Assembly: GCA_046727415.1 (NCBI GenBank)
Contig: JBKPCO010000068.1
Coordinates: 1-60,036 of the forward strand
DNA: 60,036 bases
Source of the DNA: Candidatus Methylomirabilota bacterium
GTDB taxonomy: Bacteria; Methylomirabilota; Methylomirabilia; Rokubacteriales; CSP1-6
Direction of reading: 5' to 3'
Below, in pieces: positions 9,118 through 53,020 of the stretch; position 1 is the first letter of the stretch, and every line of letters starts with the position of its first letter. The notes beneath the pieces are model-generated. The model was not told the DNA's origin and searched no databases. It saw only the letters and a program-made list of their open reading frames with translations. A program made the translations under genes and the position numbers.

Positions 9118-9159
9118 TTACCCCCGGGTGTCGAGACGATGGGAGTGACAAGTCTGGCG
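9118..9159 (-). promoter_or_regulatory. conserved promoter/operator motif (TTGTCACTCCC-N20-TAAGTC), copy A
   Basis: 34/42 identical to 52980-53020; lies between the divergent DUF899 and HTH genes. Confidence 0.6.
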
Positions 9160-9167
9160 GGATTCCG

Positions 9168-10388
9168 ATGGACTCGCTGATCACGGCGGCGGCGCTGGCC
9201 CTCACCGCGGGTGATCCTCTCGGCGCGCTGAACCGTGTCGCCCTGCGCGACGACCCGCCCGCGCTGGCGCTGCGTGGCATCGCCATGGCGCAGCTCGGCG
9301 ATCTCGTCCGGGCGAAGAATCTCCTGCGGCGTGCCGCGCGCGCCTTCGGCCAGAGAGAGGCCGTCGCTCGCGCGCGGTGCATCGTCGCCGAGGCCGAGAT
9401 CGCGCTCGTCTCGCGCGACCTGGGCTGGCCCGCGACGGCGCTGGCCGCAGCCCGGGCCACACTCGAAGAGCACGGCGATCGCGCGAACGCCGCATATGCG
9501 CGGCACCTCGAAGTCCGGCGCCTGCTCTTGATCGGGCGCCTCGACGAAGCCGAGCGTACGCTTGCCGCGCTCGACCCCACGCCCTTCCCGCCCGCGTCGA
9601 GGACCGCCCACGAGCTAGTGGTGGCGGGGATCGCGATGCGACGCCTCCGGACGAAGGCGGCGGGGGCGGCGCTCGCTCGGGCCGAGCGCGCCGCGGGCTC
9701 AGTGCGGATCCCCGCGCTGACGGCGGAGGTCGAAAGCGCGTCCCGCGTCCTGAACACCCCGGCGGCGCGCCTGATCGCGAGGGGCGAGGAGCGTCTCCTC
9801 CGGCTCGAGGAGGTCGAGGCGCTGCTGGCATCGAAGGCGCTCATCGTGGACGCGTGCCGTCGCGTCGTGCGGGACGCCGGCACGGTGGTCTCGCTTGCGC
9901 GGCGTCCGGTGTTGTTCGCCCTCGCGCGCACGTTGGGCGAAGCGTGGCCGGCAGACGTGCCGAGGGACATCCTCGTCGCGCGAGCATTCGGCGCGAAGAA
10001 CGCCGATGAATCGTTTCGCGCGCGGCTGCGAGTCGAGGTCGGGCGCCTCCGCGCGGCGCTCCGGAAGCTGGCGGGGCCAGCCGCGACGAAGCGAGGATTT
10101 GCGCTGGCGCCGCGCCGCGCTCGCGAGGTGGTCGTGCTGGCGCCGCCTGTCGAAGGTGAGCATGCGGCGGTGCTGGCCTTCCTCGCCGACGGCGAGTCGT
10201 GGTCGAGCTCGGCCCTGGCGCTTGCGCTTGGAGCCAGCCAGCGAACCGTGCAGCGGGCACTCGACTCGCTGGCGGCCTCCGACAAGGTACACTCGTTCGG
10301 TCGCGGGCGAGCGCGCCGCTGGATGACCCCGCCCGTCCCGGGATTCACGACGACGTTGTTACTCCCCGCTCCACTGCCGAGTGGTTAG
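9168..10388 (+). CDS. large helical-repeat / helix-turn-helix transcriptional regulator (uncharacterised family)
   Basis: MDSLITAAALAL..GDPLGALNRVALRDD N-terminus, winged-HTH-like RARLRVEVGRLR, C-terminal HTH WSSSALALALGASQRTVQRAL. Confidence 0.75.
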   Translation: MDSLITAAALALTAGDPLGALNRVALRDDPPALALRGIAMAQLGDLVRAKNLLRRAARAFGQREAVARARCIVAEAEIALVSRDLGWPATALAAARATLEEHGDRANAAYARHLEVRRLLLIGRLDEAERTLAALDPTPFPPASRTAHELVVAGIAMRRLRTKAAGAALARAERAAGSVRIPALTAEVESASRVLNTPAARLIARGEERLLRLEEVEALLASKALIVDACRRVVRDAGTVVSLARRPVLFALARTLGEAWPADVPRDILVARAFGAKNADESFRARLRVEVGRLRAALRKLAGPAATKRGFALAPRRAREVVVLAPPVEGEHAAVLAFLADGESWSSSALALALGASQRTVQRALDSLAASDKVHSFGRGRARRWMTPPVPGFTTTLLLPAPLPSG

Positions 10389-10391
10389 GAT
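10356..10391 (+). promoter_or_regulatory. motif copy C (TTGTTACTCCC-N19-TAGGAT), probable leaderless promoter
   Basis: same 11-mer as copies A and B; -10-like TAGGAT 6 nt before ATG 10398, no SD. Confidence 0.5.
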
Positions 10392-10397
10392 GGGCGC

Positions 10398-11048
10398 ATG
10401 AGCCGATCAACCGCCCAGATCGTCCGCGAGTATGGCCCCTTCCCAGGTGCCGACCACGTGCACGGCGTCACGTATGACGGCCAGCACGTCTGGTTCGCTG
10501 CCGGAGACAAGCTGATCGCCTTCGATCCATCGAGCGGGAAAGCGCTGCGCTCGATCGAGGTCGCCGCGCATGCCGGAACGGCCTTCGACGGCCAGCATCT
10601 GTACCAGATCGTCGAGGATCGCATCGAGAAGATCGATCCGGCGACGGGCCGTGTGCTCGCCGCGATCCCGGCGCCCGGGCGTGGCGGAAACTCAGGGCTC
10701 GCGTGGGCCGAAGGAACGCTCTGGGTGGGGCAGTATCGGGACCGGAAGATCTATCAGGTCGATCCCCAGACCGGGACGATTCTTCGCACGATCGAGTCCA
10801 GGCGATTCGTCACCGGGGTCACCTGGGTCGACGGAGAGCTCTGGCACGGCACCTGGGAAGGTGACGAGAGCGATTTGAGGCGAGTCGATCCCCGGACCGG
10901 AGACGTTCTGGAGACGCTCGAGATGCCGCCCGGCGTGTTCGTTTCGGGGCTCGAGTCCGATGGCCGCGATCAGTTCTTCTGCGGCGGCGGAAGCAGCGGG
11001 AAGGTTCGGGCGGTCCGCCGGCCCAGGCGAGGCTCCTCGCGCAAGTAG
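10398..11048 (+). CDS. beta-propeller protein (glutamine cyclotransferase-like)
   Basis: repeated HGVTYDGQHVW / AGTAFDGQHLY / SGLAWAEGTLW / TGVTWVDGELW blades with IDPxTG. Confidence 0.8.
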   Translation: MSRSTAQIVREYGPFPGADHVHGVTYDGQHVWFAAGDKLIAFDPSSGKALRSIEVAAHAGTAFDGQHLYQIVEDRIEKIDPATGRVLAAIPAPGRGGNSGLAWAEGTLWVGQYRDRKIYQVDPQTGTILRTIESRRFVTGVTWVDGELWHGTWEGDESDLRRVDPRTGDVLETLEMPPGVFVSGLESDGRDQFFCGGGSSGKVRAVRRPRRGSSRK

Positions 11049-11188
11049 CGCCAAACCAGCACGCTGTCGAAGTAGCCAGTCGGTCTTCACAATGTCACTC
11101 ATCGAGTGTGCCCCCGCCTGCCGCGGACACGCGAGAAGAGTATGATCGTGGCACCCGATGCAGAGCTGCGATACGAGGAGGCGCGGCG

Positions 11189-12559
11189 ATGGCGACGATC
11201 TCGAAGACGAGGACACCCCGCGCGCTCGCGCAGACGGCTCGGTGGGCCGAGCCGGGCTCGAAGTCGGCGGCGCTCTTCGCGCGCGCCCAGGGCGTGTTGC
11301 CGGGGGGCAACTCGCGGACGACTGTCTACATGGCGCCGTACCCGCCGTACGCGGCCGCCGGGGAAGGCTGCTGGATCACCGATGTCGAGGGCGACCGACG
11401 CCTGGACTGCCTGAACAACTACACGGCGCTGATCCACGGCCACGCCCACCCGGCGATCGTCGAAGCGGCGACCCGCCGGCTCGCCCTCGGCGCGTCGTTT
11501 CCGATGCCGACCCCCGAGGAGATCGATCTGGCGGCGCTTCTCTGCGAGCGGCTGCCCTCGGCGGAGCGGGTGCGGTTCACCAACTCGGGCAGCGAAGCGG
11601 TGATGATCGCGGTCAAGGGCGCGCGCGCCTTCACGGGCCGACCCAAGATCGCAAAGTTCGAGGGCGCGTACCACGGCTCGTATGACTACGTCGAGGTGAG
11701 CCTCGGATCGACTCCCGAGACCTGGGGGAGTCTGGCGGCGCCCGCCAGCACCGCGTACTCGAAGGGGACGCCGCCGGCGGTGCTCGAGGACGTCGTCGTG
11801 CTGCCGTTCAATCACACGGAGCAAGCGGTTGCGCGCATCGAGCGCGAGGCCGGGCGCCTGGCAGCAGTGGTGGTGGATCCGGTCCCCAACCGCGTCGGCC
11901 TCGTCCCCGCCCGGACCGAGTTCTTGCAGGCCCTCCGCACCGTGACGAGAGCGCACGGGATCGTGCTTATATTTGACGAGGTCATCTCGTTCCGCGCCGG
12001 TTATCACGGCGCACAGGGCGCTCTGGGCGTGACACCGGACATGACCACACTCGGCAAGATCATCGGCGGCGGCTTTCCCGTGGGCGCCGTGGCGGGACGG
12101 GCCGACGTCATGGCAGTGTTCGATCCGACGCGGGGCGGGCCGCCGCCCGCGCCGCACGGCGGAACGTTCAACGCCAACCCGGTCACGATGGCCGCCGGCC
12201 TGGCCGCGATGCGGCTCCTGACACCCGATGCCTTCGCCCGGCTCGCCGACCTGGGCGCCAAGCTCCGCGCGAGCCTCGACGACTGCTTCAAGCAGGCCGG
12301 GGTCCCCGGGCGCGTCACCGGGCTGGGCTCGCTGTTCCGCCTTCATGCGGTGGATCGCGAGCTGAGCGACTATCGGAGCGCGCGAGCCACGCCCGCCGAA
12401 TCCGAGCGCCTGGTTCGGCTGGTGCGCCGGCTCATGGAGCACGGCGTGCTCATGTCGATCACCGGGCTCGGGTGTCTCTCGACGCCGATGGGTGACGCCG
12501 AGCTCGAGGGCCTCGTGGAGACGTTCGCCGCCGTCCTCGCAATGGAACGGAAGGCGTGA
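11189..12559 (+). CDS. class III PLP aminotransferase (GSA aminomutase-like)
   Basis: FTNSGSEA, AKFEGAYHGS, LIFDEVISFR, TTLGKIIGGGFPVGA, HGGTFNANP. Confidence 0.92.
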   Translation: MATISKTRTPRALAQTARWAEPGSKSAALFARAQGVLPGGNSRTTVYMAPYPPYAAAGEGCWITDVEGDRRLDCLNNYTALIHGHAHPAIVEAATRRLALGASFPMPTPEEIDLAALLCERLPSAERVRFTNSGSEAVMIAVKGARAFTGRPKIAKFEGAYHGSYDYVEVSLGSTPETWGSLAAPASTAYSKGTPPAVLEDVVVLPFNHTEQAVARIEREAGRLAAVVVDPVPNRVGLVPARTEFLQALRTVTRAHGIVLIFDEVISFRAGYHGAQGALGVTPDMTTLGKIIGGGFPVGAVAGRADVMAVFDPTRGGPPPAPHGGTFNANPVTMAAGLAAMRLLTPDAFARLADLGAKLRASLDDCFKQAGVPGRVTGLGSLFRLHAVDRELSDYRSARATPAESERLVRLVRRLMEHGVLMSITGLGCLSTPMGDAELEGLVETFAAVLAMERKA

Positions 12560-14619
12560 GCCGTTTCCGCGTCGCGGTCGACATCGGCGGCACCTTCACC
12601 GACATCGTCTTCCTCGACGCCGACGGACGCCTGCACATCAAGAAGGTGTCGTCCAGCGTGGACGACTACGCCCGCGCCATCGTCGACGGGCTCCGCGAGG
12701 TGTTCGACGAGACCGGGCTCGGCGGTCGCGACGTGGTCGAGGTGCTGCACGGTACCACGGTCGCGTCCAACGCGCTGCTCGAGCTGCGCGGGGCCAGGAC
12801 GGGACTCATCACCACCCGCGGCTTTCGCGACGTCCTCGAGATCCGGCGTCTGCGCATGCCGCGCCTCTACGACCTCACCTGGGAGAAGCCGCCAACTCTG
12901 GTCGAGCGCCGCCTGCGGATGGAGGTGAGCGAGCGGATCGACGCTCGCGGCGCGGTCCAGCAGCCGCTCGACGAGGGCGACGTGGAGCGCGCCATCGACC
13001 GGCTGCTGGCACAAGGCATCGAGGCGCTGTCCGTGTGCCTGCTCAACGCCTGGGCGAACCCCGTCCACGAGCAACGCATCAAGTCGATCGTCGATCGGCG
13101 CGCCCCAGGCCTGCCCTTGTGCATCAGTAGCGAGGTGCTACCGGAGATCAAGGAATACGAGCGAACGTCGACCACGGTGATCAACACGTACGTCCTGCCG
13201 ATCGTCCGCCGCTACCTGGCGACGCTCCGGACGGGTCTCGATGGGATCGGTGTGCGCGGCCCGCTCTTGATCATGCAGTCCAACGGCGGATTGATGACCG
13301 ATGCGGCGGCGGCCGCGATGCCGATGCACATCATCGAGTCGGGGCCGGCCGCCGGTGTCGTCGGGGCTCAGGCGCTGGCCCGGCGTATCGGGTTCGACAA
13401 GCTGATCACGTTCGACATGGGCGGCACCACCGCCAAGGCATCGATCGTCGAGGACGGCGCGGTCAGCCGGGCCACCGAATATCAGGTGGGCGGCGGGATC
13501 ATGCACGGCTCGCGGCTGCTCACCGGAAGCGGCTATCTGCTCCGGGTCCCCGCCATCGACCTCGCCGAGGTCGGCGCCGGCGGCGGCTCGATCGTCTGGC
13601 GCGATGCGGGCGGCGCGTTGCAGGTCGGCCCGCGCAGCGCGGGGGCGTCCCCCGGGCCGCTCTGCTACGACCTCGGCGGCACCGAGCCGACCATCACCGA
13701 CGCCAACATCGTGCTCGGCTACCTGAACCCGACGGCGCTGGCCGGCGGCGCCGTGAAGCTCAACGCGGCTCGGTCGCACGAGGTTTTCCAGGAGCGGGTC
13801 GCGGCGCCGCTCGGGCTATCGCTCGCCGAGGCGGCGTACGGCGCACATCTGATCGCGGCGTCGAACATGATGCGCGCCATTCGCGCGGTCTCGAGCGAGC
13901 GCGGTCGCGACCCGCGCGAGTATGCGCTGTTCGCCTTCGGCGGCAACGGGCCGTTGTTCGCCGCCGGGATGGCGCGAGCGCTCGAGATGACGCGCGTCGT
14001 CGTCCCGCCTGCGCCCGGGCTCTTCTCGGCCTTCGGCCTGCTCTATTCCGAGGTCGAGCACCACTACGTCCGCACGTGGCGCCGGCCGGCGCGCGGCCTC
14101 GATCCGGCCGAGCTGGCCGAGGCGTTCGGACGCCTGGAGGACGAGGCGCGCCGTCAGCTCGCCGCCGAGGGATTCACCGGCGCGGCCGTTCGCATCGCGC
14201 ACTCGGCGGACTGCCGGTACCAGGGGCAGTCGTTCGAGCTGACCGTGCCTGTGACGGCGGGCGCGTCGATCGAGGAAGGGTTCGGGCGCGAGCACGAGCG
14301 CACGTACGGACACCGCGCGGGCGCCGACGAGCCGGTCGAGATCGTGAGCCTGCGCGTCGTCGGCCAAGGCCTGAGTGACCGGCCGCGTGTCCCCGAGTGC
14401 GTGCAGATCGGCCGGAGCGCGGGCACGCTCGGCGGCTCGCGGCGCGTGTACTTCGGCCAGCGCGACGGCTGGATCGTGACACCCATCCTGACGCGCGGCG
14501 ATCTCGGGACGCCTCGCGATGGTCCGGCGATCATCGAGGAGTACGACGCGACGTGCGTGGTGCCACCGGGCGCCAGGGCTGCGCTCGACCTCTCGGGCAA
14601 CATCGTGATGGAGGTCTGA
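12556..14619 (+). CDS. hydantoinase/oxoprolinase family subunit A
   Basis: VDIGGTFTD, HGTTVASNA, ESGPAAG, FDMGGTT, GAGGGSI. Confidence 0.95.
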   Translation: MSRFRVAVDIGGTFTDIVFLDADGRLHIKKVSSSVDDYARAIVDGLREVFDETGLGGRDVVEVLHGTTVASNALLELRGARTGLITTRGFRDVLEIRRLRMPRLYDLTWEKPPTLVERRLRMEVSERIDARGAVQQPLDEGDVERAIDRLLAQGIEALSVCLLNAWANPVHEQRIKSIVDRRAPGLPLCISSEVLPEIKEYERTSTTVINTYVLPIVRRYLATLRTGLDGIGVRGPLLIMQSNGGLMTDAAAAAMPMHIIESGPAAGVVGAQALARRIGFDKLITFDMGGTTAKASIVEDGAVSRATEYQVGGGIMHGSRLLTGSGYLLRVPAIDLAEVGAGGGSIVWRDAGGALQVGPRSAGASPGPLCYDLGGTEPTITDANIVLGYLNPTALAGGAVKLNAARSHEVFQERVAAPLGLSLAEAAYGAHLIAASNMMRAIRAVSSERGRDPREYALFAFGGNGPLFAAGMARALEMTRVVVPPAPGLFSAFGLLYSEVEHHYVRTWRRPARGLDPAELAEAFGRLEDEARRQLAAEGFTGAAVRIAHSADCRYQGQSFELTVPVTAGASIEEGFGREHERTYGHRAGADEPVEIVSLRVVGQGLSDRPRVPECVQIGRSAGTLGGSRRVYFGQRDGWIVTPILTRGDLGTPRDGPAIIEEYDATCVVPPGARAALDLSGNIVMEV

Positions 14620-14621
14620 CG

Positions 14622-16391
14622 GTGGCCGCGCGACTCTCCGATCCCATCGGGTTCGAGCTGTTCAAGAACACGCTCCTGTCCATCGCCGACGAGATGGCAC
14701 TCACAATCTTGAGGACCGCGTACTCCGGTGTGCTCAAGGACAACATGGACTACTCCACGGCTTTCTGCGACGCCGAGGGGCGGACGGTCGCGCAGGGCCT
14801 GACCTTGCCCGGTCACCTGTCGTCGTTTCCCGATGCGCTCGCCGCCACGATCCGACGCTACGGCGACCGCATGCGGCCGGGGGACGTCTACGCGCTCAAC
14901 GATCCCTTCGAAGGCGGGATGCATCTGCCCGACGTGTTCATCCTCAAGCCGATCTTCCACGACGGACGACGGGTGGCCTTCGCCGCCACCATCTGCCACC
15001 AGACCGATATGGGCGGCCGGGTGGCCGGCTCGAATGCATCGGACTCGACCGAGATCTTCCAGGAAGGGCTTCGCATCCCGCCCGTCAAGATGTACGACGC
15101 CGGCGAGCCGAACGAGACCTTCTTTCGCATTCTGGAGAAGAACGTCCGCATGCCGGTGCGCGTGTTCGGCGACATGCGTGCGCAGCTCTCGGCCTGCCAT
15201 ATTGCTGAAGAAGCATTCGCGCGGCTGATCGCCAAGCACGGCGTTGCGCAGGTGTCGGCCTACATGGAAGAGATCCTCGACTACACCGAACGACTGACGC
15301 GCGCGGCGATCGCCGAGCTCCCGGACGGCGAGTGGAGCTTCACTGACTGGATCGACGACGACGGCATCGACTTCGGCACGCCGATCCCGCTCACGGTTGC
15401 CTTGAAGAAGCACGGTGATCAGATGACGGCGGACTGGACCGGCACCTCACCTCAGGTGAAGGGCGCCATCAACAACACCCTGTCGTTCACCCGCGCCGCC
15501 ACCTATACCTGTCTCAAGTCGGTCCTGCCCCACGAGATCCTCTGCAACGCCGGCTTCTACCGCGCCATCGAGGTCATCGCGCCGGCGGGGACGATCGCCA
15601 ACGCGGTACCGCCCGCGGCCTGCGCCGCTCGCGGCCTGACCGGGTTTCGCATGGTCGACACCGTCTTCGGCGCCCTCGCGCAGATGCTGCCCGACCGGGT
15701 GATCGCGGCCTCCGAGGGAGGCAACACCGGCGTGAGCATCGGCGGCTATCACGCGGATCGCACGCCGTTCATCTTCGTGGAGTTCATCTGCTCGGCCTGG
15801 GGCGGGCGGCCGTGGGCCGACGGACTCGACGGCAACGCCAACCTCTTCGCGAACATGTCGCTGCCCTCTGCCGAGGTCACCGAGACTGAGCAGCCGCTCG
15901 AGATTCTGTGCTGCGAGCTGATCCCCGACGTGGGCGGCCCCGGCCGGCATCGCGGCGGGATGTCGATCCGCCGCGCCTACCGGCTCACCGAGGACGAGGC
16001 CGTGCTTCAGGTACGCGCCGATCGCCACACGTTTCGTCCTTACGGGCTGTACGGCGGCGCGCCGGGCAAGCCATCACGGAATCGACTGATTACCGATGGT
16101 CGCGAGCGGGAGCTCACAGCCAAGGTCACCATGACTCCGATGCGCCGTGGCGACGTCTTCATCCACGATCAGCCCGGGCCCGGCGGCTGGGGCGATCCGC
16201 TCGAACGCGATCCGCTTCGGGTGCTGCGCGACGTCGCCAACGAGCTGGTCAGCCCGCCCGCGGCGCGTGATGATTACGGTGTCGTAATCGACCCGTCCGG
16301 CTCCGCTGTGGACGAGGACGCCACGATCCGGCGGCGAGCCGAGCTGCGGGCGGCACGCGGCTGGGCCACGCCGCCTATCATCAGCCGCTGA
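14622..16391 (+). CDS. hydantoinase B/oxoprolinase family subunit
   Basis: RTAYS...DYST, NDPFEGGMHLPD, HQTDMGG, IFQEGLRIPP, GGGWGDPLER; GTG start after GGAGG. Confidence 0.95.
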   Translation: MAARLSDPIGFELFKNTLLSIADEMALTILRTAYSGVLKDNMDYSTAFCDAEGRTVAQGLTLPGHLSSFPDALAATIRRYGDRMRPGDVYALNDPFEGGMHLPDVFILKPIFHDGRRVAFAATICHQTDMGGRVAGSNASDSTEIFQEGLRIPPVKMYDAGEPNETFFRILEKNVRMPVRVFGDMRAQLSACHIAEEAFARLIAKHGVAQVSAYMEEILDYTERLTRAAIAELPDGEWSFTDWIDDDGIDFGTPIPLTVALKKHGDQMTADWTGTSPQVKGAINNTLSFTRAATYTCLKSVLPHEILCNAGFYRAIEVIAPAGTIANAVPPAACAARGLTGFRMVDTVFGALAQMLPDRVIAASEGGNTGVSIGGYHADRTPFIFVEFICSAWGGRPWADGLDGNANLFANMSLPSAEVTETEQPLEILCCELIPDVGGPGRHRGGMSIRRAYRLTEDEAVLQVRADRHTFRPYGLYGGAPGKPSRNRLITDGRERELTAKVTMTPMRRGDVFIHDQPGPGGWGDPLERDPLRVLRDVANELVSPPAARDDYGVVIDPSGSAVDEDATIRRRAELRAARGWATPPIISR

Positions 16392-18420: not shown

Positions 18421-18436
18421 TGGCCGCGGGCCTCCG

Positions 18437-18535
18437 CTAGCGAAGACGCCCGGCGGCGCGCAGACGGCGCTTCTTCTGCTTCTTCTTGAAGGCGGCGCGC
18501 TTGCGCGCGGTCTTCCGGCGATTCCTATCGGACAT
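18437..18535 (-). CDS. 32-aa highly basic peptide MSDRNRRKTARKRAAFKKKQKKRRLRAAGRLR
   Basis: own translation; GAGGAG RBS 6 nt upstream of ATG; below the ORF-track size cut-off. Confidence 0.7.
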   Translation of the reverse strand: MSDRNRRKTARKRAAFKKKQKKRRLRAAGRLR

Positions 18536-18611
18536 GGCTGTCTCCTCTCATCGAGCTCGGTCACCCCAAGGCTACGACACCGTCGAGCCTCGGTACAGAT
18601 GATTCGGGGCG

Positions 18612-19370: not shown

Positions 19371-19430
19371 AAGCGCGCCTCGGCCGGCGGGGCCCCAGCC
19401 CCGCGACGGCCTGCGGCGCGCACTACGGGC

Positions 19431-21196: not shown

Positions 21197-21203
21197 GATC
21201 GGT

Positions 21204-22505: not shown

Positions 22506-22518
22506 CGGACGTGACCGG

Positions 22519-23838: not shown

Positions 23839-23846
23839 GATTCCCC

Positions 23847-38808: not shown

Positions 38809-38930
38809 CCAACGTCGCATTGCCGGCCGCGGGCCGTCACGCGGCGCCTCGCGGCCGGCACTGCCGTATGTGGATAGGTATCCACCCGCGCGCGGGTCGC
38901 TGAGTTCGGCGACCGCCGAGGAGGCAGCCA

Positions 38931-39623: not shown

Positions 39624-39696
39624 CCGGGCCAGGTCCAGTCGCGGGAACCGTCCGCCCGACAAATCGTGTATAAGTAGGACTAGCCGGACTCGCCGG

Positions 39697-40104: not shown

Positions 40105-40267
40105 ACATCGAGTCTAGACCGTCGCGTCAACGGCGGCGCAACTTCCTGGATAATGCCGGTCGCTTTGACCGCCGTGCGACGATCCGTTTCAAGAGGACAC
40201 CATTCGGGTGGAGTCGCGCTGACGACGGTGCTGCCTCTTCGTGCGCACGTACCCAGGAGGTGGCCGC

Positions 40268-42010: not shown

Positions 42011-42028
42011 ACCCGAAGACCGAGGACA

Positions 42029-45000: not shown

Positions 45001-45205
45001 CGGGTCCGGGATGCCGCTAGGGGCTCAGGTGTGGGGTGAAGACGCCGTGATCTTGCCGGGGGGCACCACTCGGATGTACCGAAACCTCTTTACCGCTGAG
45101 ACCATCGAGAGCGGAGACACACCCGAAGGGCATCGGACATTGCCGCTCGCCGCCCTGTTCTCTCGTTTCCCGGTCGCCATACTCGAGCGTGCGAAGCGTT
45201 CGTGA
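42029..45205 (+). CDS. treY: malto-oligosyltrehalose synthase
   Basis: PTATYRIQ, SHGYDV, DIVPNHMG, NYRRFFDI, GLRIDHPDGL, STHDTKRGED, LVDPDNRRPVD. Confidence 0.96.
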   Translation: MTPAEVFQKFERDPAAFTRIPTATYRIQLGPQLTFADLRAIVPYLSALGISDCHLSPFLQPCSEASHGYDVADHGQLNAALGTESDYGALVETLRHHGMGQIMDIVPNHMGISGSRNRWWMDVLENGRASAYAGFFDIEWEPIKLELKDKVLLPMLGDQYGRALENQALQLEFQDGAFSIRYYENLLPVAPATYVDILSWRLDELAQTLGADDPHLLELRSIVTALGHLPQQTEHDAVRLAERQREKEIVKRRLVELVRDSSAIRAFVDENVRRYNGIKGDARSFDQLDELIARQAYRPAFWQTAGDEINYRRFFDINELAAIRMEEPAVFEAAHRLVFRLVREGAVTGLRIDHPDGLFAPIRYLRDLQRRCFLERARYVRQAERGDATEPAEWEAAVLSELDRRIAEHEAAPDSSGGENGGPAGLGLLARWSATRRAVPGRLVRAVRAMLGKPTPTDNVARPFYIVTEKILMPEERLPPRWPAAGTTGYAFLNAVNGLFVDPAGAQSLTLTYERFVGARLEFAEVAYQSKRLVMETTMASEIAMLGQRLGRISERRRSARDFTDRMLTVALREVIACFPVYRTYVATTDGDVAERDRRYVEAAVAEARRRNPSMSASIFEFIGSLLWLALPVDMSDAERAEVVDFVRRFQQLTGPFTAKGIEDTAFYRYHRLISLNEVGSHPDVFGISVEEFHRRCLERLAHWPTAISVLSTHDTKRGEDVRARINVLSEIPDEWRTRVRVWHRQNLSKKTRIDGEPAPDNNEEYLLYQTLVGAWPLDSNAGEHDAFVERIQRYMHKALREAKVHVSWINPRPEYDQAVRNFIARLLDQSQRNEFLDDFRPFQARVAELGLYNSLSQTILRLAAPGIPELYQGAELWELNLVDPDNRRPVDFARRQAALAELSGRIEAADADLAGLARDLLEQRQDGRVKLYVIQRGLAYRREHAQLFLRGNYVPLEVSGARANHVCAFARSYAEEEAIVVVPRLLSPLIGSGMPLGAQVWGEDAVILPGGTTRMYRNLFTAETIESGDTPEGHRTLPLAALFSRFPVAILERAKRS

Positions 45206-45240
45206 AGTACTCGCGGGACCCGCCTCAGCGCTGCAGCGAT

Positions 45241-46335
45241 CTACGGCATCAGGGGGATCTCGACGCGAGTGTTGTTCGTGACCACGCGGAGCCGAAGGTC
45301 GACCGGCGCTGACCGGAGGGGCGGCGTCGTGATGGAGTAGGTCCCGGGATTGGCGCCGGCTCCCAGCGCGAGGTCAAGCGTGGTGCCGTCCGCCGTGCGG
45401 ATGCGCAGGAAGACCTCGGCTCCCGCGAGAGGGCGGCCGCCCGAATCAGCGAGCCGTACAGCAAACGCCTCGCCCCCGCCGTTGGATGCCGGCGCCGGGT
45501 CACGCGTCACATCCACCTGGGGCGGGCCGACGTTGAGAGACGAGTCCCTCGACACGGCTCCCGTCTGCGACGGGCTGCTGGCGCTGGGGGTCGGCCCAGT
45601 CATTGTCGGCGCGTCCACGCTCGGTTCCGGTACGCTGCGACGCAGCGAGTCAGGGGCGCGGGAGCCCCACGGTTCTGGGCTCTCGGCCCGCTGTGACGCG
45701 TGAACCTCCAAGCTTGGCGAAGGCGTCTCGGCAACCGCCAGACCCGGCCTCGGCGCCTGAGCTTCAACAGCCTGCGGACTCTTCTCGACGAGGGGAGAAG
45801 CGCCCATCCCATCGATCGGCGGTGGCTCGACCGGGTGCGTCCGACTCACGAGGGTCCTCCCCGCTAGCGACAGCACGGGCAGGGCGACCAGCACAGCGAT
45901 CAGCCCGGTCAGGATCCACCGCTGCCGGAGGCGGGCTCTTCGCTTGAATCCGAGAATGCGCTCGAGTTGGCGCGCGTCCGCCGCCTCGAGCCCGACACGT
46001 TCGATCGGTGACGCCCCGCTGACCTCGAAGAGTTGCAGTTGTTCGTCCTGCACCGGACGAGTTTCGAACTGCGAGACAACGGCAAAACCGTCCCGCTCAA
46101 GCGCACGGGTGACGTCCGGGCGGCTGCGCCGGTCGGCGGAAGGCGGGTCCGACGGAGGCCCGTCGCGTCGCCGGTCTACGATGATTTCGAATTTTTCGCG
46201 TGCGCCCAGCGCCGTGGTGAACGATGCGACGAACTCGCCAGACAGGTGCCGATCACGGCTGACAATACACAGACGTCGCGACGCTTTGCTGGGCTCTCCA
46301 AGAGCATTCGGCCTGAATAGACCTCGCACCTTCAT
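45241..46335 (-). CDS. hypothetical membrane protein (IIVDRR domain, TM, Pro-rich linker, YtkA/FixH-like C-terminus)
   Basis: long ORF, paralog immediately upstream; start uncertain (46335 or 46404). Confidence 0.65.
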   Translation of the reverse strand: MKVRGLFRPNALGEPSKASRRLCIVSRDRHLSGEFVASFTTALGAREKFEIIVDRRRDGPPSDPPSADRRSRPDVTRALERDGFAVVSQFETRPVQDEQLQLFEVSGASPIERVGLEAADARQLERILGFKRRARLRQRWILTGLIAVLVALPVLSLAGRTLVSRTHPVEPPPIDGMGASPLVEKSPQAVEAQAPRPGLAVAETPSPSLEVHASQRAESPEPWGSRAPDSLRRSVPEPSVDAPTMTGPTPSASSPSQTGAVSRDSSLNVGPPQVDVTRDPAPASNGGGEAFAVRLADSGGRPLAGAEVFLRIRTADGTTLDLALGAGANPGTYSITTPPLRSAPVDLRLRVVTNNTRVEIPLMP

Positions 46336-46586
46336 CAAACCATTCTGGAATGCGGCGGCAGGCCAGTGGGTGACCTCGTGACGCCCGTCCATCGCTACCT
46401 TCATAGCCCCGCGACCCGCGATCTGACGAAGTTTTTCTGCGTCGTCCGCTTCGCCATGGGGCCAGATCTCCACCCCATGGTCGGCCCACTCCCCCATCGT
46501 CGACGACGGCGTTCCGCGCTTCTCCTAAAGAGGAGGGCGCCGATCTCTAAGGGGATCGAGGCGACCCGCTTCAGCGCTGCGGCGAT

Positions 46587-47604
46587 CTACGGCATCAGGG
46601 GGATGTCGACCCGAGTGTTGGCCGTGAGCACGCGGAGCCGAAGGTCGACCAAGGCTGACCGGAGGGGCGGCACGGTGATGGAGTAGGTCCCGGGATTGGC
46701 GCCAGCTCCCAGCGGGAGGTCAAGCAGGGTGCCGTCCGCCGTGCGGATGAGCAGGAGGACCTCGGCTCCTGCGAGTGGGCGGCCGCCCGAATCAGCGAGA
46801 CGTACAGCATACGCGTCGCCCCCGCCATCAGATGCCGGCGCAGGGGCACGCGTCACATCTACCTGGGGCATGCGGACGAGCAGAGACGAGCCCTTCAACG
46901 CTCCCGTCTGCGGCGAACGGCTGGCGCCGGGGGTCGGCCCAGTCCGTCGTGGCGTCTCGGCAACCGCCAGACCCAGCCTCCGCGCGTGAGCTTCACCAGC
47001 ATGAAGATTCTTCTCGACGAGCGGAGAAGAGCCTATCTCATTGCGAGGCGGTGGCTCGACCGTGCGTGTCCGACTCAAGAGGGGCCTCCCCACTAAAGAC
47101 AGGAGGGATAGGCGACCAGCACGCCGATCAGCCCCGTCAGAATCCTCCGCCGCCGGAGTCGGGCTCTTCGTCGGCGATTGAATCCGAGGATACTCTCGAG
47201 TCGGCGCTCATCCTCCTCCTCGAGCCCGAGACTTTCGATCGGCGACGCGCCTCGGCCCTCGACAAGTTGGAGATGGTCGTCCTGCATCGAATCGGTCTCG
47301 AACGGCTCGACAATGGCGAAGCCATTCCGCTCGAGCACCCGCGTGACGTGCTGGCGGACGCGGCGGTCTGCGGGAGGCGGACCCGTCGGAGGCCCGCCGC
47401 GTCGCCGGTCTTCGATGATGTCGAATTCTTCACGCGCCCCCAGCGCTGTGGCGAACGACGCAACCCACTCGCCAGACAGGTGCCGATCACGGCCAACAAT
47501 ACACAGACGTCGCGACGCTACTTCAGGTTTGCTAGGTTCTTCGCGAACCTTCATCAAGCACCATGCGGAATGACCTCGTGACACCCGTCCATCGCTACCT
47601 TCAT
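46587..47604 (-). pseudogene. frameshifted paralog of the 45241-46335 gene
   Basis: two consecutive ORFs (47093-47584, 46587-47093) that align to the intact copy if one C is restored near 47111. Confidence 0.75.
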
Positions 47605-47720
47605 AGCCCGGCGACCCGCGATCTCACGAAGTTTTTCGAGATCCCGTGTGGTAGGTCGACGACGGACACCACATCTTGCGGGCCGCGAAGCAAAAGGCCA
47701 GGCCAATGCGCGCACCGAGG

Positions 47721-47768
47721 GTCGTAGGGAGCGGCGTTTTTGAACCGACGACCTTTGGGCTGCGAGGC
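47721..47768 (-). other. degenerate 3' half of an initiator tRNA-Met (att-like remnant)
   Basis: GCCTCGCAGCCCAAAGGTCGTCGGTTCAAA vs canonical fMet GGCTCATAACCCGAAGGTCGTCGGTTCAAA (25/30). Confidence 0.55.
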
Positions 47769-47891
47769 TAGTACTGCGTCGACAACCTCAAACGATCCCC
47801 GATGAGAGCCGTCACTTAGCGGCGCCCTGGTGCATCCTCAGGCGCGCTGGTGACAAGCCCAACCCTCGACTCGGGTTTCGACCGCCGGCGT

Positions 47892-48914
47892 TCACGCGCT
47901 CCTTGGTCGGGTGCCCGTTCGCAGCGCGTACGAGCTCAGCACTCTCATGTAGTTCGCGCGCTCGAACGCAGCCGGCTCCGCCACCGATCGGTAGCTCAGG
48001 CTCCCCTGCATCTGCGCGATCGACGCGTACTCGTGTTCCTCCATCCACTGCAGGAGATCCGCGCGCACGCGTCCCAAGTACGCGATGCCGTTCTGCAGGA
48101 GCGCAGACGTCATCATCGCCACCCGAGCGCCGGCCATCATCGACTTCAAGACCTGCGCCGAGCCGTGCACGCCTCCGGTCACCGCGAGGTCTGCGCGCAC
48201 ACGGCCGTAGAGAATGGCGACCCAGTGCAAACGCACCAGCACCTCGGGCGGATTCGACAACGTCAGCCGTGGGGTCACCTCGCGCCGTTCGAGATCGAAA
48301 TCTGGTAGATAGAAGCGGTTGAAGAGGACCAGCCCGTCGGCGCCCGCGTCCGCGAGACGCTGCGCGAGATTGGCGATCGCGCTGAACACATGCCCGAGCT
48401 TCACCGCGACCGGGATCGAAAGGTTACGCTTCACATTCCGCACGAGGTCGACGTACATCTGCTCGACCTGGCCACCGGTCAGTTGTGGATCCGTGGGAAC
48501 ATAGTAGACGTTCAGCTCGAGCGCGTCGGCGCCCGCCTGCTCGATCTTCTTCGCGAACTCGATCCAGCCGCCCGTCGACACGCCGTTCAGACTCCCGATG
48601 ACCGGAATCCTTACTGTCTCCTTCGCGCGCCGCACGTGTTCGAGATACGCGTCCGGCCCGAGGTTGTACCCGGTGAGGTCCGGGAAGTAATCGCGCGCCT
48701 CGGCATAGCTCTCGGCCCCCCGCGTCAGGTACCGATCGAGGTGGGTGCTTTCGACGTCGAGCTGCTCTTCGAACAGCGAATGCAGGACGACCGCAGCCGC
48801 CCCCGCGTCCTCCATCGCGCGGATGTTATCGAGGCTCCCGCACAACGGCGAGGCCGAAGCGACCAGCGGACTGGTGAGCGACAAGCCGAGATACCGCGTC
48901 GACAGGTCAATCAT
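47892..48914 (-). CDS. dihydroorotate dehydrogenase-like protein (PFOR-associated type)
   Basis: [46 protein letters not shown]. Confidence 0.9.
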
Positions 48915-49021
48915 GCACGCCTCCGGCCGCGACCGGCATTGCTGAGCCCGTAGGCGATACCAGCGGCCGCCTCATTGCCGTCGATCCTGACGGTCGCGGC
49001 CCGGTCATGCGTTTCCGCCAT
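48911..49021 (-). pseudogene. remnant of pyruvate:ferredoxin/flavodoxin oxidoreductase (nifJ/por-like)
   Basis: 36-aa ORF with [12 protein letters not shown], the PFOR N-terminal signature, overlapping (ATGA) the DHOD-like start. Confidence 0.65.
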
Positions 49022-49351
49022 GATGATGACGACGTCCAAGATACGTGCCATGCAATTCGTCGGCGTCGGACAGAGGACAGGCGCCGTCTTTTCGCGAACT
49101 TCAGTGAGACCGCCGGGCCGACCGCCGCCGCAGCCTGGCGGGTTCGCCAGAGGCCCGATGAGGCGCGGTCGCCTCAGTGGGGCAGTCAGGGACCGACATC
49201 CGCGGAGTTCGAACTGCGGCAGTTCTGTTTCAGCGTGCCGTGTCTGACCGCGTTTCGGTTCGGTCCAAGAAGCTGCCCGCAAAGGTGCGACAAGGGCTGG
49301 GGAGGCCGACCGGCGCTCGCGCCGCCGTGGGAAGCGAGCTATCGTTGACAC

Positions 49352-50608
49352 ATGTCGCGCCTCACCACCAGAAAGCGAGCGCGCCTCCCGGACAGGGCCT
49401 TCGCATACATCGACTCTCGCGGCCGTCGCCGGCTGCCGGTCCACGACAAGGCGCACGTGAAGAATGCTCTGGCCCGGTTCAGCCAGGTCGTCTTCGAGAC
49501 CGATGCCTCTCGGGAGCAAGCACGCCGCCGGCTGCTCAACGCGGCGAAGAAGTTCCGCATCGTGCCCGTCGGGTTCATCACCGGACAGCTGCAATCCGAG
49601 CAGCGGCACGCCAGGACGGGTCGCCTCGTGATCGAGCTCGGACGGAACCCGGCACCGGGCGAGCTGGAACGGCGATTGCGGACCGTCCTTCGTGATCCCA
49701 CGCTCACCGTTCTGCACTGGTCCGATGCTGCGGGGGCGTACATGGACAGCACCGGCAAGCCCGCTCCGCTGCCGGCGGAAGGCGACCAGCGTGGCGTGAC
49801 GTATCTCGAGCGCCAGGGGCGGCCGATGACGGCGCTGGTGCACAACCCGATGACCCTCGATGATGCGGATCTCTCGGAGACCGTGCTGACGGCCGTCCGC
49901 TTCGTCGTCGAAAAGGAGCGCCTGCACGGCCAGATCCAGGCGACATCGACCGATGCCGCGGCCCTGCCCACCGGCTTCGTCACACTGCTCATGACCGACA
50001 TCGAGGCGTCGACCGGCCTGCTCCGCAGGCTGGGCGATGGCTATGGCGCGCTGCTGAACGACGTCAGATCAATCGTCCGGAGAGCGGTATCACGAGGGAG
50101 CGGCCGGGAAATCGATGCGCGCGCCGACGAGTTCTTTGCGGTCTTTGGTCGCGCCGCGGCCGCTATCGAGGCGGCGGTGGCCATCCAGCAGATGCTCCGC
50201 AACCACACCTGGCCCGACGATCTGGACGTGCGGGTGCGTGTCGGCATTCACAGCGGCCACCCGACACTGACGGATGTCGGGTACATCGGCCTGGCCGTCC
50301 ACACTACGGCCCGCCTCTGCGCGGCGGCGCATGGAGGGCAGATCGTAGTGTCCGCCACCACCAGAGCGGCAGCCGGGAAATCGACGTCGAGCGGCTTCCG
50401 ATTTCGGAGCCTCGGTCGACATCGCCTTCCGGGCCTTCCCGACGCCGAGATCCTCTTCCAGGTTCAGGCGCAGGGACTACGCCTCAGCTTCCCGCCCCCT
50501 CGCACCGGCCGTCGCTCGGCACCACGCCGCCGCCAGAAGGAGAGTGGGGATGGCGTGCGTCGGACGCCTCCCGAATATGGTCAGCTGGAGCTTCCCGAGC
50601 TCACCTGA
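49352..50608 (+). CDS. class III adenylate/guanylate cyclase with N-terminal DUF6582-like domain
   Basis: LPDRAFAYIDS..RRLPVHDKAHVKNALARF; TLLMTDIEAST, ADEFFAVF, RVRVGIHSG, GLAVHTTARL, GGQIVVS. Confidence 0.85.
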   Translation: MSRLTTRKRARLPDRAFAYIDSRGRRRLPVHDKAHVKNALARFSQVVFETDASREQARRRLLNAAKKFRIVPVGFITGQLQSEQRHARTGRLVIELGRNPAPGELERRLRTVLRDPTLTVLHWSDAAGAYMDSTGKPAPLPAEGDQRGVTYLERQGRPMTALVHNPMTLDDADLSETVLTAVRFVVEKERLHGQIQATSTDAAALPTGFVTLLMTDIEASTGLLRRLGDGYGALLNDVRSIVRRAVSRGSGREIDARADEFFAVFGRAAAAIEAAVAIQQMLRNHTWPDDLDVRVRVGIHSGHPTLTDVGYIGLAVHTTARLCAAAHGGQIVVSATTRAAAGKSTSSGFRFRSLGRHRLPGLPDAEILFQVQAQGLRLSFPPPRTGRRSAPRRRQKESGDGVRRTPPEYGQLELPELT

Positions 50609-50641
50609 GCGCGCGTGACGTCGAAATATGCCCTCACTGCC

Positions 50642-50950
50642 TCACGACACGCGTTGCACGAAGGATCGGTCCTCGACCAGGATGACGCCCGCCTGCCCGG
50701 CCCGGCGCGCCACCTCGAGATGCTCCGGATCAGCAGCGAGCGCCTCGCGATATCGCTCGTAGACAGCGAGGCTGGGGAAGTCGATGAGAGAAAGCGCACT
50801 GTTGGTGGGGCCGGCGAACTTCGTCGGCGCGTAGTAGCCGACCACCTTACCGCCACAGCGCTCGATCGGCGCGGCGATGGCGCGCGCATAGGCCTCGAAG
50901 TCGGCGAGCTTGTTCGCGTCCAGTGTGTAGCGAATGCACAGCGTGATCAT
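50642..50950 (-). CDS. NIPSNAP family protein
   Basis: IRYTLD...FEAYA...GYYAP...FPSLAVYERYR...EDRSF; GAGGAGG RBS. Confidence 0.85.
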   Translation of the reverse strand: MITLCIRYTLDANKLADFEAYARAIAAPIERCGGKVVGYYAPTKFAGPTNSALSLIDFPSLAVYERYREALAADPEHLEVARRAGQAGVILVEDRSFVQRVS

Positions 50951-51050
50951 TGGCGTCCTCCTCTTGTTTGCGATCTCTCACGTCGCAGTATCGCGCGCGC
51001 CGGACACGGGTCCACGCCGAACGCTTCGATGGGGACCAAACCATCGCGCC

Positions 51051-51079
51051 TTGTCTCTCTACAGCCCACGGTCTACGCT
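51051..51079 (+). promoter_or_regulatory. sigma70-type leaderless promoter
   Basis: TTGTCT-17bp-TACGCT-6bp-ATG. Confidence 0.5.
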
Positions 51080-51085
51080 GGGGCA

Positions 51086-51844
51086 ATGCGTGACACCGAC
51101 ATACTGGCGGACGTGGCCCGGCTCCTCGGCGAACCCGCGCGGACGCGCATCCTCACCGCGCTGCTTAGCGGTTGTGCATTCACGGGGAAGGAGCTGGCCT
51201 ACTTTGCCGGCGTGACGGCGGCAACGGCGAGCAGCCATCTATCCAGGCTGGTCGCCGGCGAATTACTGGTCATGGAGAAGCAGGGGCGGTTCCACTACTA
51301 CCGGCTCAAGTCCGCCGACGTCGCTCGCGCGATCGAGGGGTTGATGACGGTGGCGGCGTCAGTGACCCCGGCTGGGTGGCCGCCCGGCCACCGCGTGGAG
51401 GCTGCTCTCCGCAACGCGCGCATGTGCTATGACCACATGGCCGGCCGTCTCGGGGTCTCTCTGTGCGACATGATGGTGCGGCGCGGGCACCTAGTGCTCG
51501 TCGACGACGGCGCCGAGGTGACGGATGTCGGCGCGAGGTTCCTCGCGGGCGTCGGCGTCGACCTCGATCGCGCACGCGGGGCCAAGCGGCGGTACTGCCG
51601 TTCGTGCATCGATTGGACGGAGCGCCGCCGGCACATCTCCGGCGCCGTGGGGGCAGCCCTCGCCAAGGCGTTTCTCGAGCACGAGTGGATTTCGCGTGTC
51701 CGGGACAGTCGGGCCCTCACCATCACGCCGGGCGGACGGAAGAAGTTGACGGACCTAGGGGTGGTCGTCGATCCCTTGACGGCAGGTCCTCAGGCTTCCG
51801 ACGTTTCGCAGAGCATCCGGCTTTCCATGGTGAGCCAGAACTGA
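51086..51844 (+). CDS. ArsR family transcriptional regulator (CYDH/CxDW extended type)
   Basis: LLGEPARTRIL, TASSHLSRL, RMCYDHMAGRLGV, CIDWTERRRHISG. Confidence 0.9.
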   Translation: MRDTDILADVARLLGEPARTRILTALLSGCAFTGKELAYFAGVTAATASSHLSRLVAGELLVMEKQGRFHYYRLKSADVARAIEGLMTVAASVTPAGWPPGHRVEAALRNARMCYDHMAGRLGVSLCDMMVRRGHLVLVDDGAEVTDVGARFLAGVGVDLDRARGAKRRYCRSCIDWTERRRHISGAVGAALAKAFLEHEWISRVRDSRALTITPGGRKKLTDLGVVVDPLTAGPQASDVSQSIRLSMVSQN

Positions 51845-51982
51845 GGGGCGTCCCGCGCGTGGTCGTCGCGCTCCGCGACAAGACGAGGTGCGGCGGGAAG
51901 GGCCGAGCGGGGCAAGAACTGGTTATGCAGCGCCGGAGTCTGCAGCCCGAATCTCCCGGTGGAGCGGCAGCGTCCAAACGGG

Positions 51983-52357
51983 ATGGAACGTCTGATGAGA
52001 GCGACGATCGACACACCCGCTCGCCCCGACTCGACGGAAAGCGCGACGGCCGCGCTCGCTTCGGTCTTGGCTGGCCGGTCTGGTCTGACCATGATTCTCT
52101 TCCGGGACGACCAATCAGCCTCTGACATCCTGGCCACGATCCTCTTCGAGGTAGCGCACGGCTTCGCTGATCGCAATCCACCGATCCAGGTCGACGTCCG
52201 CGATCAGCCCGCGCTCACCGCGCTGTACAACGTCCGGACGACACCGACGATCCTGCTCGTGAAGGACGGCGTGGTCGTCGACCGGGTGGTCGGAACGCCA
52301 ACCAGGATCCTCCTGGAGAGCCTCCTCCGCGCACGGATACCGGGCGCTCCGCCCTAA
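51983..52357 (+). CDS. thioredoxin-fold protein lacking CxxC
   Basis: QVDVRDQPALTALYNVRTTPTILLVKDGVVVDRVVG. Confidence 0.65.
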   Translation: MERLMRATIDTPARPDSTESATAALASVLAGRSGLTMILFRDDQSASDILATILFEVAHGFADRNPPIQVDVRDQPALTALYNVRTTPTILLVKDGVVVDRVVGTPTRILLESLLRARIPGAPP

Positions 52358-52441
52358 TATCGCGTCTGGGCCCCCGGCACCAGGGAGTGCTTCCCGGGTG
52401 AGGTCTGGGTAAACGAAGGGGGTTAGCGGCCTCTGCGTCCG

Positions 52442-52921
52442 CTAACCCCTGGTCGTCTTGCGGATGCTGCCGAAATGTTCGTCGATGTGGCCGAGAAGAG
52501 CACCCTTGACCATCTCCTCGGCGCTCATCGGGGGCATCCCCGTGAACACAGTGCCGGTCTTCGCCAACTCGACATCGGAGAGGCCGCGCACGGCCGCAGC
52601 CGCCGTCGCAGCTCCCTTCTGGTGGAGCGCGATTGTCTCCTGCTTCGTACAGCCGGCGAACTCCTTGGCATGTTGGGCGTTCATCTCGTCGAGCATCTCA
52701 CGTGTGAAGTGTGGCAATGCCTGGCCGGCGGCGATCGTCTTGATGATGTGAGTTATCGGCTCGTAGCTGCTGGCGACGTGGTGCGCCGTCGCGGCGACCG
52801 TCCACTTCTCAGCGGCCGTCGTTCTCTTCCAGTCGGCATCGGTCAGCTTCTCGAGAAGAGCCGTGGCCTCCTTCGCCTTGGCCTCGAACTGCTCGGCAAA
52901 TGCCTCTCCCTTGGTTTCCAT
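52442..52921 (-). CDS. DinB / maleylpyruvate isomerase N-terminal-like protein
   Basis: LTDADW...WTVAATAHHVA...GHIDEHFGSI; AAGGAGG RBS. Confidence 0.8.
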   Translation of the reverse strand: METKGEAFAEQFEAKAKEATALLEKLTDADWKRTTAAEKWTVAATAHHVASSYEPITHIIKTIAAGQALPHFTREMLDEMNAQHAKEFAGCTKQETIALHQKGAATAAAAVRGLSDVELAKTGTVFTGMPPMSAEEMVKGALLGHIDEHFGSIRKTTRG

Positions 52922-52979
52922 GGTGTCCTCCTTGGTTTCCCTTGGCCACCCATTGCTCGTTGTTGCTCATGACATTCAT

Positions 52980-53020
52980 TTACCGCCGGGTGGCGAACAG
53001 TGGGAGTTACAAGTGTGACG
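52980..53020 (-). promoter_or_regulatory. conserved promoter/operator motif (TTGTAACTCCC-N19-TAAATG), copy B
   Basis: 34/42 identical to 9118-9159, ~60 nt upstream of the DinB-like ATG. Confidence 0.6.

Follow-up and report, generated by a model that had tools for sequence, protein, structure and literature searches.

The question raised by this locus is why two genes of different families, lying 44 kb apart, should be preceded by nearly the same stretch of DNA. The window, meaning the whole stretch analysed, covers 60,036 nt of a Candidatus Methylomirabilota bacterium (positions 1 to 60,036 of contig JBKPCO010000068.1, assembly GCA_046727415.1). Copy A of the shared element (9118-9159) lies before a gene for a DUF899 thioredoxin-like protein, and copy B (52980-53020) before a DinB-like gene. 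The original prediction, made from the letters alone, had reported 34/42 and 40/50 identities between the copies, and both values were reproduced by global alignment, the first with one gap and the second when the next 8 nt were included. It had also placed both copies in the same orientation, ~60-76 nt upstream of minus-strand genes, and their left ends were measured at 76 nt (A) and 59 nt (B) before the respective start codons. The identity of the downstream genes was confirmed by Pfam. The DUF899 gene (8284-9042, minus strand, ATG at 9042) encodes 252 aa with a CPSC motif and matches PF05988 (E 1.8e-96), its product also being weakly similar to AhpC/Redoxin, and the DinB_2/MDMPI_N-like gene (52442-52921, minus strand, ATG at 52921) encodes 159 aa and matches PF12867 (E 1.5e-10) and PF11716 (E 2.9e-10).

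The element can be described as an asymmetric site of 26 nt, GGAnTCnCGnC-N4-TTGTnACTCCC, with a hexamer starting with TA 19-20 nt further on. It is built of box 1 (GGAnTCnCG) and, 15 nt downstream, box 2 (TTGTnACTCCC, referred to as the core), and this two-box site has neither dyad nor direct-repeat symmetry. Site A (9141-9166, minus strand), which faces DUF899, consists of box 1 GGAATCCCGCC at 9166-9156 and the core TTGTCACTCCC at 9151-9141, and it ends 1 nt from the ATG of a regulator gene (9168-10388, plus strand, 406 aa) that is divergent from the DUF899 gene. On the minus strand, copy A reads GGAATCCCGCCAGAC-TTGTCACTCCC, 20 nt and then TAAGTC (9115-9120), a putative -10 hexamer. Site B (53002-53027, minus strand), which faces the DinB-like gene, has box 1 GGACTCGCGTC and the core TTGTAACTCCC at 53012-53002; copy B reads GGACTCGCGTCACAC-TTGTAACTCCC, 19 nt and then TAAATG (52977-52982, minus strand), again a candidate -10 element, so the predicted spacing of 19-20 nt from core to TA hexamer was found at both copies.

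The link originally drawn between the DUF899 and DinB-like genes was upheld, but the picture of a regulon with two copies was incomplete, as a third exact copy had been overlooked. Site C (10341-10366, plus strand) is embedded in codons 392-400 of the regulator gene, within its final 15 codons, and faces a beta-propeller gene (10398-11048, plus strand, 216 aa). It has box 1 GGATTCACGAC and the core TTGTTACTCCC (10356-10366) preceded by GGATTCACGACGACG, and the consensus given above is shared by A, B and C. The TA hexamer of site C, TAGGAT (10386-10391, plus strand), lies 19 nt past the core, fits TAnnnT and holds the TAG stop codon of the regulator, with the propeller ATG following 6 nt later.

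The position of site C inside a coding sequence allowed selection on DNA to be separated from selection on protein. Codon usage was compared in 81 regulator genes, picked irrespective of the motif. Codons 397-399 were TTG in 78/81, TTA in 77/81 and CTC in 78/81 genes, with a third-position entropy of 0.10, 0.33 and 0.17, respectively, compared with a median of 0.95 over 242 conserved-residue columns. Of 4,691 Leu codons, only 99 are TTA, and 77 of these stand at position 398. In the loci without a propeller gene for which the flank was available (L084, L094 and L095), the C core was damaged in 3/3, in L084 by synonymous changes; in loci with the propeller gene, a single core substitution was seen in only 3/73. 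Loci that have lost DUF899 show truncated A sites, as read by eye (e.g., L252, L232 and L254). Site A adjoins the regulator start codon in most loci, and its sequence is kept when displaced by about 45 nt (L257), therefore it is not merely translation-start context. The frozen codons, together with the conservation of the sites in relatives, support the proposal made originally that selection acts on the motif at the DNA level, whatever is encoded downstream.

The geometry of the sites is also constrained. In A-type sites, the spacing from core to TA hexamer was 19 or 20 nt in 58/76 cases. In C-type sites, the regulator stop codon lies exactly 19 nt past the core in 71/73 and 68/69 cases (two site sets), at least 65/73 hexamers fit TAnnnT, and an ATG follows 6 nt later in 46/73 and 40/69. 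A consensus scan for sigma-70-type promoters in both site regions gave none. The arrangement of a class II-like promoter, with the operator at the -35 position, no -35 hexamer and a fixed -10 phasing, was found at A, B and C, and the core thus sits where a -35 element would be, as had been predicted. Conservation extends beyond the hexamer: in the leader that follows it (9058-9114, minus strand), the first 20-40 nt, TCTCAYGACCAACAACC..., are conserved in the A-type sites of L076-L283, and the leader of copy B shares the conserved start (TCATGAGCAACAACGAGCAAT). A longer shared leader segment occurs in some A-type sites of Proteobacteria.

A position-weight matrix built from 76 distinct sites of other genomes was then run over this genome. 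It gave five sites, A (39.5 bits), C (38.1 bits), B (33.5 bits), one on contig C4 (24.4 bits) and one on contig C193 (22.8 bits), with the next match at 12.9 bits, and the reversed matrix gave no match above 12 bits over the same genome. The genome thus holds at least four copies of the element, namely A, B, C and the weaker C4 copy (C4:12803-12828, C-type), which lies before a DUF899 paralogue of 49% identity. The segment C4:12803-13407 contains the core TTGTTACCCCC, TAGGAT and a 10-codon remnant of the propeller start whose stop codon overlaps the ATG of the paralogue; a decayed 3' remnant of a regulator gene stands upstream of the site, and the same arrangement is present in G038:C14 and G032:C13. 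The match at C193:4109-4134 is doubtful and may be due to chance or be a relic: it lies inside an ORF for a 181-aa hydrophobic membrane protein (...GFAILLLL...), and no TA hexamer was found 19-20 nt from it. At C188:3975, only the core was present and box 1 was not shared, so this position was rejected as a chance match.

Co-occurrence of site and regulator, proposed as a check in the original prediction, was analysed in 41 related genomes, 15 of which proved to carry the regulator. This genome has a single regulator match, and no decayed regulator gene lies beside copy B. Allowing up to 2 mismatches, the 26-nt pattern occurs at 33 places in 15/41 genomes. The regulator is present in 14 of these, and G009, which lacks it, has one match with 2 mismatches. 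Of the 26 regulator-negative genomes, 25 gave no match to the pattern, and the reversed-pattern control gave 1 match overall. Where both flanks of an orthologous locus were available, A and C were present in 9/9, and flank-limited loci carry whichever copy their flank allows.

The downstream genes were also followed through their own families. In 9/9 close DUF899 genes that face the regulator, the exact core precedes the gene by 97-172 nt; it is absent in 4/4 close copies not beside the regulator (in G030, G021 and G005, and the second copy of G013). In the DinB family (30 loci), the core was found only in this genome (G000) and in G008, whose genes are 82% identical and whose genomes are both regulator-positive, 87-91 nt before the start codon. 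The equally close DinB-like copy of G030 and 27 paralogues show the core only with 3 or more mismatches; the regulator was not found in G030, a genome that is 79% complete. In the same genome, the orthologues of the DUF899 (81%) and DinB-like (82%) genes are adjacent, head to tail on one strand (G030:C92, L176, 959-2259), which is an independent link between the two genes. This pair lies beside fragments of an MFS gene, and neither gene has the motif.

When one genome per species was scanned, at least 562 relatives of the regulator were retrieved, and the loci of the 80 best-matching ones (76-87% identical) were compared. Their hosts include Alphaproteobacteria (Mesorhizobium, Chelativorans, Bosea and Bradyrhizobium), Beta- and Gammaproteobacteria (Paraburkholderia, Caballeronia and Trinickia; Pseudomonas, Halomonas and Rhodanobacter), Acidobacteriota of several orders with some contigs above 1 Mb, Gemmatimonadota, Planctomycetota, Methylomirabilota, Myxococcota, Verrucomicrobiota and one Actinomycetota contig; some loci are on short contigs, for which the phylum label is less secure. 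The triad of DUF899 and propeller genes diverging from the two sides of the regulator recurs in most of these loci, with about 71-87% identity for DUF899 and 72-88% for the propeller. An A-type site was found in 74/80 loci and a C site in 74/80. Cores were also visible in most of 80 metagenome loci with a regulator 63-88% identical; a metagenome scan using a 41%-identical homologue as the query gave no matches. The regulator gene is carried by 81 plasmid records, mostly megaplasmids or chromids, including S. meliloti pSymB and records from Paraburkholderia, and in public data its family makes up at least 8,000 clusters when grouped at 90% identity. The regulator together with its sites and core targets is best read as a cassette that has spread horizontally through many phyla. 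Tandem arrangements were seen in two loci: L012 (G013:C96) has two TTGTAACTCCC cores 18 nt apart at about 1469-1487, as in a tandem duplication, and L226 has two complete A-type sites in series.

The cross-phylum comparison also bears on the origin of copy B. The original prediction had missed both the cassette and the closeness of copy B to foreign A-type promoters, to which it aligns with 70/94, 69/91 and 68/93 identical columns, compared with 60/93 for the A site of its own genome. This homology runs over about 75 nt and includes the spacer and the start of the leader. The DinB-like gene of G008 (82% identical) keeps the site in a different genomic context, therefore promoter and DinB-like gene behave as a unit. 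The usual gene after A-type sites is DUF899, but others occur, namely AHSA1/SRPBCC (L083, L098 and L155, and so annotated in a Nitratireductor plasmid), short-chain dehydrogenase (L127 and L152), GST (L151), PpoB2 (L130) and a small membrane protein of about 105 aa. Cultured genomes have extra sites before DUF899 paralogues (Chelativorans, Mesorhizobium and Paraburkholderia) and before an AHSA1-like gene, and in G010 one precedes a protein judged RibD_C-like by eye only. The A-type promoter thus appears to have been copied in front of new cargo genes.

The product of the regulator gene was modelled with AlphaFold2 at a pLDDT of 92.7 for the full protein, with a low-confidence tail. Its proposed layout is a TPR-like domain (residues 1-198), an OmpR/PhoB-like winged helix (~219-316), a MarR/ArsR-like winged helix (~330-392) and a tail containing LLLP. 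Superposition of residues 1-198 with VIA-align gave Z values of 17.4 for 3gw4, 16.0 for PlcR (2qfc), 15.8 for domain III of MalT (1hz4) and 15.6 for NprR (4gpk), which need caution because helical repeats commonly reach a Z near 14. Whole-model fold searches were dominated by TPR matches. For the middle domain, hhalign comparison of residues ~219-316 with Trans_reg_C domains from four response regulators encoded in this genome gave 91.4% (E 8.9e-7, 89 columns) and 85.6% (E 5.6e-6), and in the full model the order of secondary structure in residues 226-316 fits a sheet, three helices and a C-terminal hairpin wing. A protein-atlas cluster with TPR and Trans_reg_C scored 0.88 and serves as a lead only. 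Residues 330-392 superpose on MarR, ArsR, SmtB and Z-alpha domains with Z values of 9-10.8 and an rmsd of 1.2-2.8 over 57-64 residues (VIA-align); their sequence matches are sub-threshold (MarR_2, 18 bits with a cut-off of 27; 7krh, E 0.046; 2oqg, E 0.073), and the architecture of the whole protein is unlike that of the MarR or ArsR family. In the sources, the protein is named only 'hypothetical', 'ArsR family' or 'TPR repeat protein'.

Taken together, the element is probably, though by no means surely, an operator-promoter through which the adjacent 406-aa regulator controls a small regulon; the protein would bind the sites, activate the target genes and regulate itself, within a redox or electrophile theme. 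The two unlike winged helices would read the two different boxes, since an operator of two boxes without symmetry fits one polypeptide with two unlike winged helices. Given the TA hexamer 19-20 nt past box 2, the latter would lie at about -43 to -33, in place of the otherwise missing -35 element. The regulator bound over the -35 region might then recruit RNA polymerase in a PhoB/SARP-like manner; box 2 over the -35 position and the lack of a detectable sigma-70-type promoter favour activation of this kind. The N-terminal TPR domain would receive the signal. Four genes would be driven, namely DUF899 (from A), the propeller (from C), the DinB-like gene 44 kb away (from B) and probably the DUF899 paralogue on C4, the propeller gene being driven from inside the 3' end of the regulator gene, perhaps as a leaderless mRNA. 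Since site A lies between any promoter of the regulator gene and its start codon, the regulator probably limits its own synthesis. A stress theme is suggested by the targets, which are DUF899 with its CPSC motif and, elsewhere, DinB, GST, short-chain dehydrogenase and AHSA1/SRPBCC.

Several observations weigh against this assignment. In the window, TTGTNACTCCC with up to 1 mismatch gave 3 matches, with a mean of 1.2 in shuffled sequences and 3 or more in 14/100 shuffles. The 4 exact cores genome-wide equal the number of about 4 estimated from base composition, and blastn-short with copy A as the query did not retrieve copy B at E <= 10. From in-genome statistics alone, the A/B similarity is not clearly beyond chance. 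Since the regulator gene lies between A and C, most of the co-occurrence of site and regulator is trivial, and the informative cases away from it are few and come from related genomes. The operator is invariant across the sampled family, which makes covariation between protein and site uninformative. As for the promoters, the putative -10 of site A, TAAGTC, is weak, and TAGACT on the opposite strand (9113-9118, plus strand), a possible -10 of the regulator gene, is better. TAGGAT at site C can equally be taken as the stop codon combined with a canonical ribosome-binding site (AGGA, 7 nt from the ATG at 10398), which would allow co-transcription of the propeller gene with the regulator. Regarding the protein, Pfam hmmscan of the regulator did not match PF00486 (Trans_reg_C) even at E <= 10, the domain-only model was poor (pLDDT 62.9), and Foldseek on that model put the OmpR-family BaeR only 25th (probability 0.47). 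MarR/ArsR-type domains are typical of repressors, and the tail motif (A/T)TxLLLP plus about six residues is kept at the protein level in homologues of 40-55% identity.

Some of these points have a bearing of their own. Fold searches with the weak domain-only model gave tandem winged-helix proteins, 3lmm (E 7e-4), YceH and ScpB, in addition to the C-terminal domain, and singled out no fold for the middle domain. The conserved tail may mean either that the operator is family-wide or that the tail has a role at the protein level. At 9113-9120, the conserved CTAArTCTAG is nearly palindromic, with TAAGTC toward DUF899 and TAGACT toward the regulator, which suggests overlapping divergent -10 elements. 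The site itself was judged not to be due to chance because the similarity extends to GGAnTCnCGnC, the matrix scan separates the sites from the background and other genomes conserve the element.

The main rival is repression, in which the same protein at the same sites would block the promoters, as well as its own leader, as a repressor or roadblock and come off only in response to a ligand. The MarR/ArsR-like C-terminal domain, mostly found in repressors, speaks for it, as do the position of site A between the possible regulator -10 (TAGACT) and the regulator ATG, and that of site C within a possible regulator-propeller transcript with AGGA as the ribosome-binding site. However, no -35 hexamer and no detectable sigma-70-type promoter are there to be blocked, the sites A, B and C keep a strict orientation and a distance of 19-20 nt to the TA hexamer, as suits activation, and OmpR/PhoB-like and TPR domains are as in activators; a repressor was accordingly considered unlikely, though to be taken seriously. 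Alternatively, a different factor, such as an alternative sigma factor or a regulator of the host, might read the sites as promoters, with the adjacent regulator as a mere passenger; box 1 (GGAAT) may bear a loose resemblance to ECF-type -35 elements. We regard this as improbable. The cassette occurs in many phyla and a host factor would need to be universal, the pattern is missing from all regulator-negative relatives except for the single 2-mismatch match mentioned above, and sites decay where targets are lost and the regulator is kept; in our reading, the spacing is also unlike that of an ECF -35/-10 pair.

Two further explanations were considered. The copies could be leftovers of segmental duplication with no regulation in common, for which the C4 copy with its decayed regulator and propeller remnants offers a precedent, and the homology of copy B to A-type promoters through spacer and leader points the same way. 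Against this, copy B is kept before the G008 orthologue in a different context, cores are exact while flanks diverge, and synonymous positions inside the core are frozen, which makes plain duplication very improbable. Least credible of all is a mobile element encoding the regulator, with A and C as its terminal inverted repeats, or pairing of the two sites within the regulator mRNA (5' GGGAGUGACAA / 3' UUGUUACUCCC). The two sites are indeed inverted and flank the gene, and their 11-nt cores can pair with one G-U. However, Pfam scans detected no transposase or recombinase family, each genome has one regulator match, the outer neighbours DUF899 and propeller are conserved, and isolated sites, with a constant spacing to the TA hexamer, precede unrelated genes; as for pairing in the mRNA, no Rfam family was matched in 8900-10500. 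An insertion sequence was ruled out on the basis of the missing transposase, the single copy in the genome and the conserved outer neighbours.

The proposed operator-promoter was also compared with known systems. PhoB/OmpR activation of class II type at the Pho box resembles it in the apparently Trans_reg_C-related winged helix and in a site that takes the place of the -35 element with constant spacing to the -10, and the core TTGTCAC presumably resembles the Pho-box half-site CTGTCAT. It differs in that the regulator has no receiver domain, a TPR domain in the sensor role and an extra MarR-like winged helix, the site lacks direct repeats phased by 11 nt, and Pfam Trans_reg_C does not match. 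SARP/AfsR regulators likewise combine an OmpR-type winged helix with a helical-repeat domain, and their sites overlap the -35 region of promoters without a -35 element. In the regulator, however, the order is inverted, with helical repeats N-terminal (1-198) and winged helices C-terminal, a further winged helix is present at the C-terminus, the operator is an asymmetric pair of boxes instead of heptamer repeats, and there is no tie to antibiotic biosynthesis clusters. In SARP promoters the distance from site to -10 is 8 nt, compared with 19-20 nt here. Membership in the SARP family was rejected on the order of the domains.

The N-terminal 198 residues superpose on the TPR sensor domains of PlcR, NprR and Rap (RRNPP) and on MalT domain III. 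RRNPP proteins have an N-terminal Xre-type HTH, bind peptides and belong to Firmicutes, and MalT has an ATPase domain and a LuxR-type HTH. RRNPP membership was rejected, as the domain order is reversed, the HTH type differs and only the TPR fold is common. The arrangement of the genes is like that of LysR-type systems in the divergent orientation of regulator and main target, in an operator placed between the two genes and in a geometry that suggests autoregulation; it is unlike them in the unrelated family, the second operator in the coding end of the regulator and a unit of ~80% identity across phyla. A literature search, made on listed records, found no paper on the regulator or the motif, and searching the 11-mer cores in both orientations gave only unrelated primer matches among the matches listed. 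The kind of system would be a local transcription factor with its regulon, and its unusual features are the domain architecture, the operator inside the gene's own end and the invariance across phyla.

With regard to the remaining genes, the propeller protein matches Pfam Glu_cyclase_2 (E 1.4e-12) and shows glutaminyl-cyclase-like or PQQ-like repeats, a relative on a Nitratireductor plasmid being annotated as 'PQQ-binding-like beta-propeller repeat protein'. The DinB-like gene lies just downstream, on the same strand, of genes for an RND pump and an outer-membrane efflux protein (53073-57706). Between the efflux genes and the DinB-like gene no terminator was found, and copy B is 45 nt from the stop codon of the outer-membrane efflux gene. 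On its other side, the DinB-like gene is convergent with a thioredoxin-like ORF (51959-52357) contained in the segment 50615-52357, and the ORF upstream of the latter looks ArsR-like by eye. NCBIfam gave no match for the regulator or DUF899, and PADLOC no meaningful defence-system match. Contigs from metatranscriptomes (4 runs of 3 studies, plant-associated and soil) are near-identical to parts of all three genes (8200-11100), and a piece of one metatranscriptome-library contig, 9058-9195, crosses site A with 1 mismatch. These contigs are no evidence of transcription, as strand, ends and RNA origin are not visible in them.

DUF899, the propeller family and the 406-aa regulator have no assigned function, and DUF899 is mentioned in only 3 papers of the library searched; a defined operator with a short list of targets turns them into a testable regulon. 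The fixed rare codon inside the operator is a clean case of a cis-element constraining a protein C-terminus. A bolder proposal, which we hold only tentatively, is that the cassette is an expression module independent of the host, in which the activator would supply the -35 contact via the invariant operator, possibly with one leaderless mRNA, and the A-type promoter would be a portable plug for cargo. If so, the same three genes could be expressed under one signal from Proteobacteria to Acidobacteria, and the plug would recruit DinB, AHSA1/SRPBCC, GST, short-chain dehydrogenase and RibD_C-like genes. With one operator lying in the last codons of the regulator gene, the protein and its DNA signal would be passed on together. 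In this respect, the invariance of the operator across phyla bears on how horizontally acquired genes remain expressible in new hosts.

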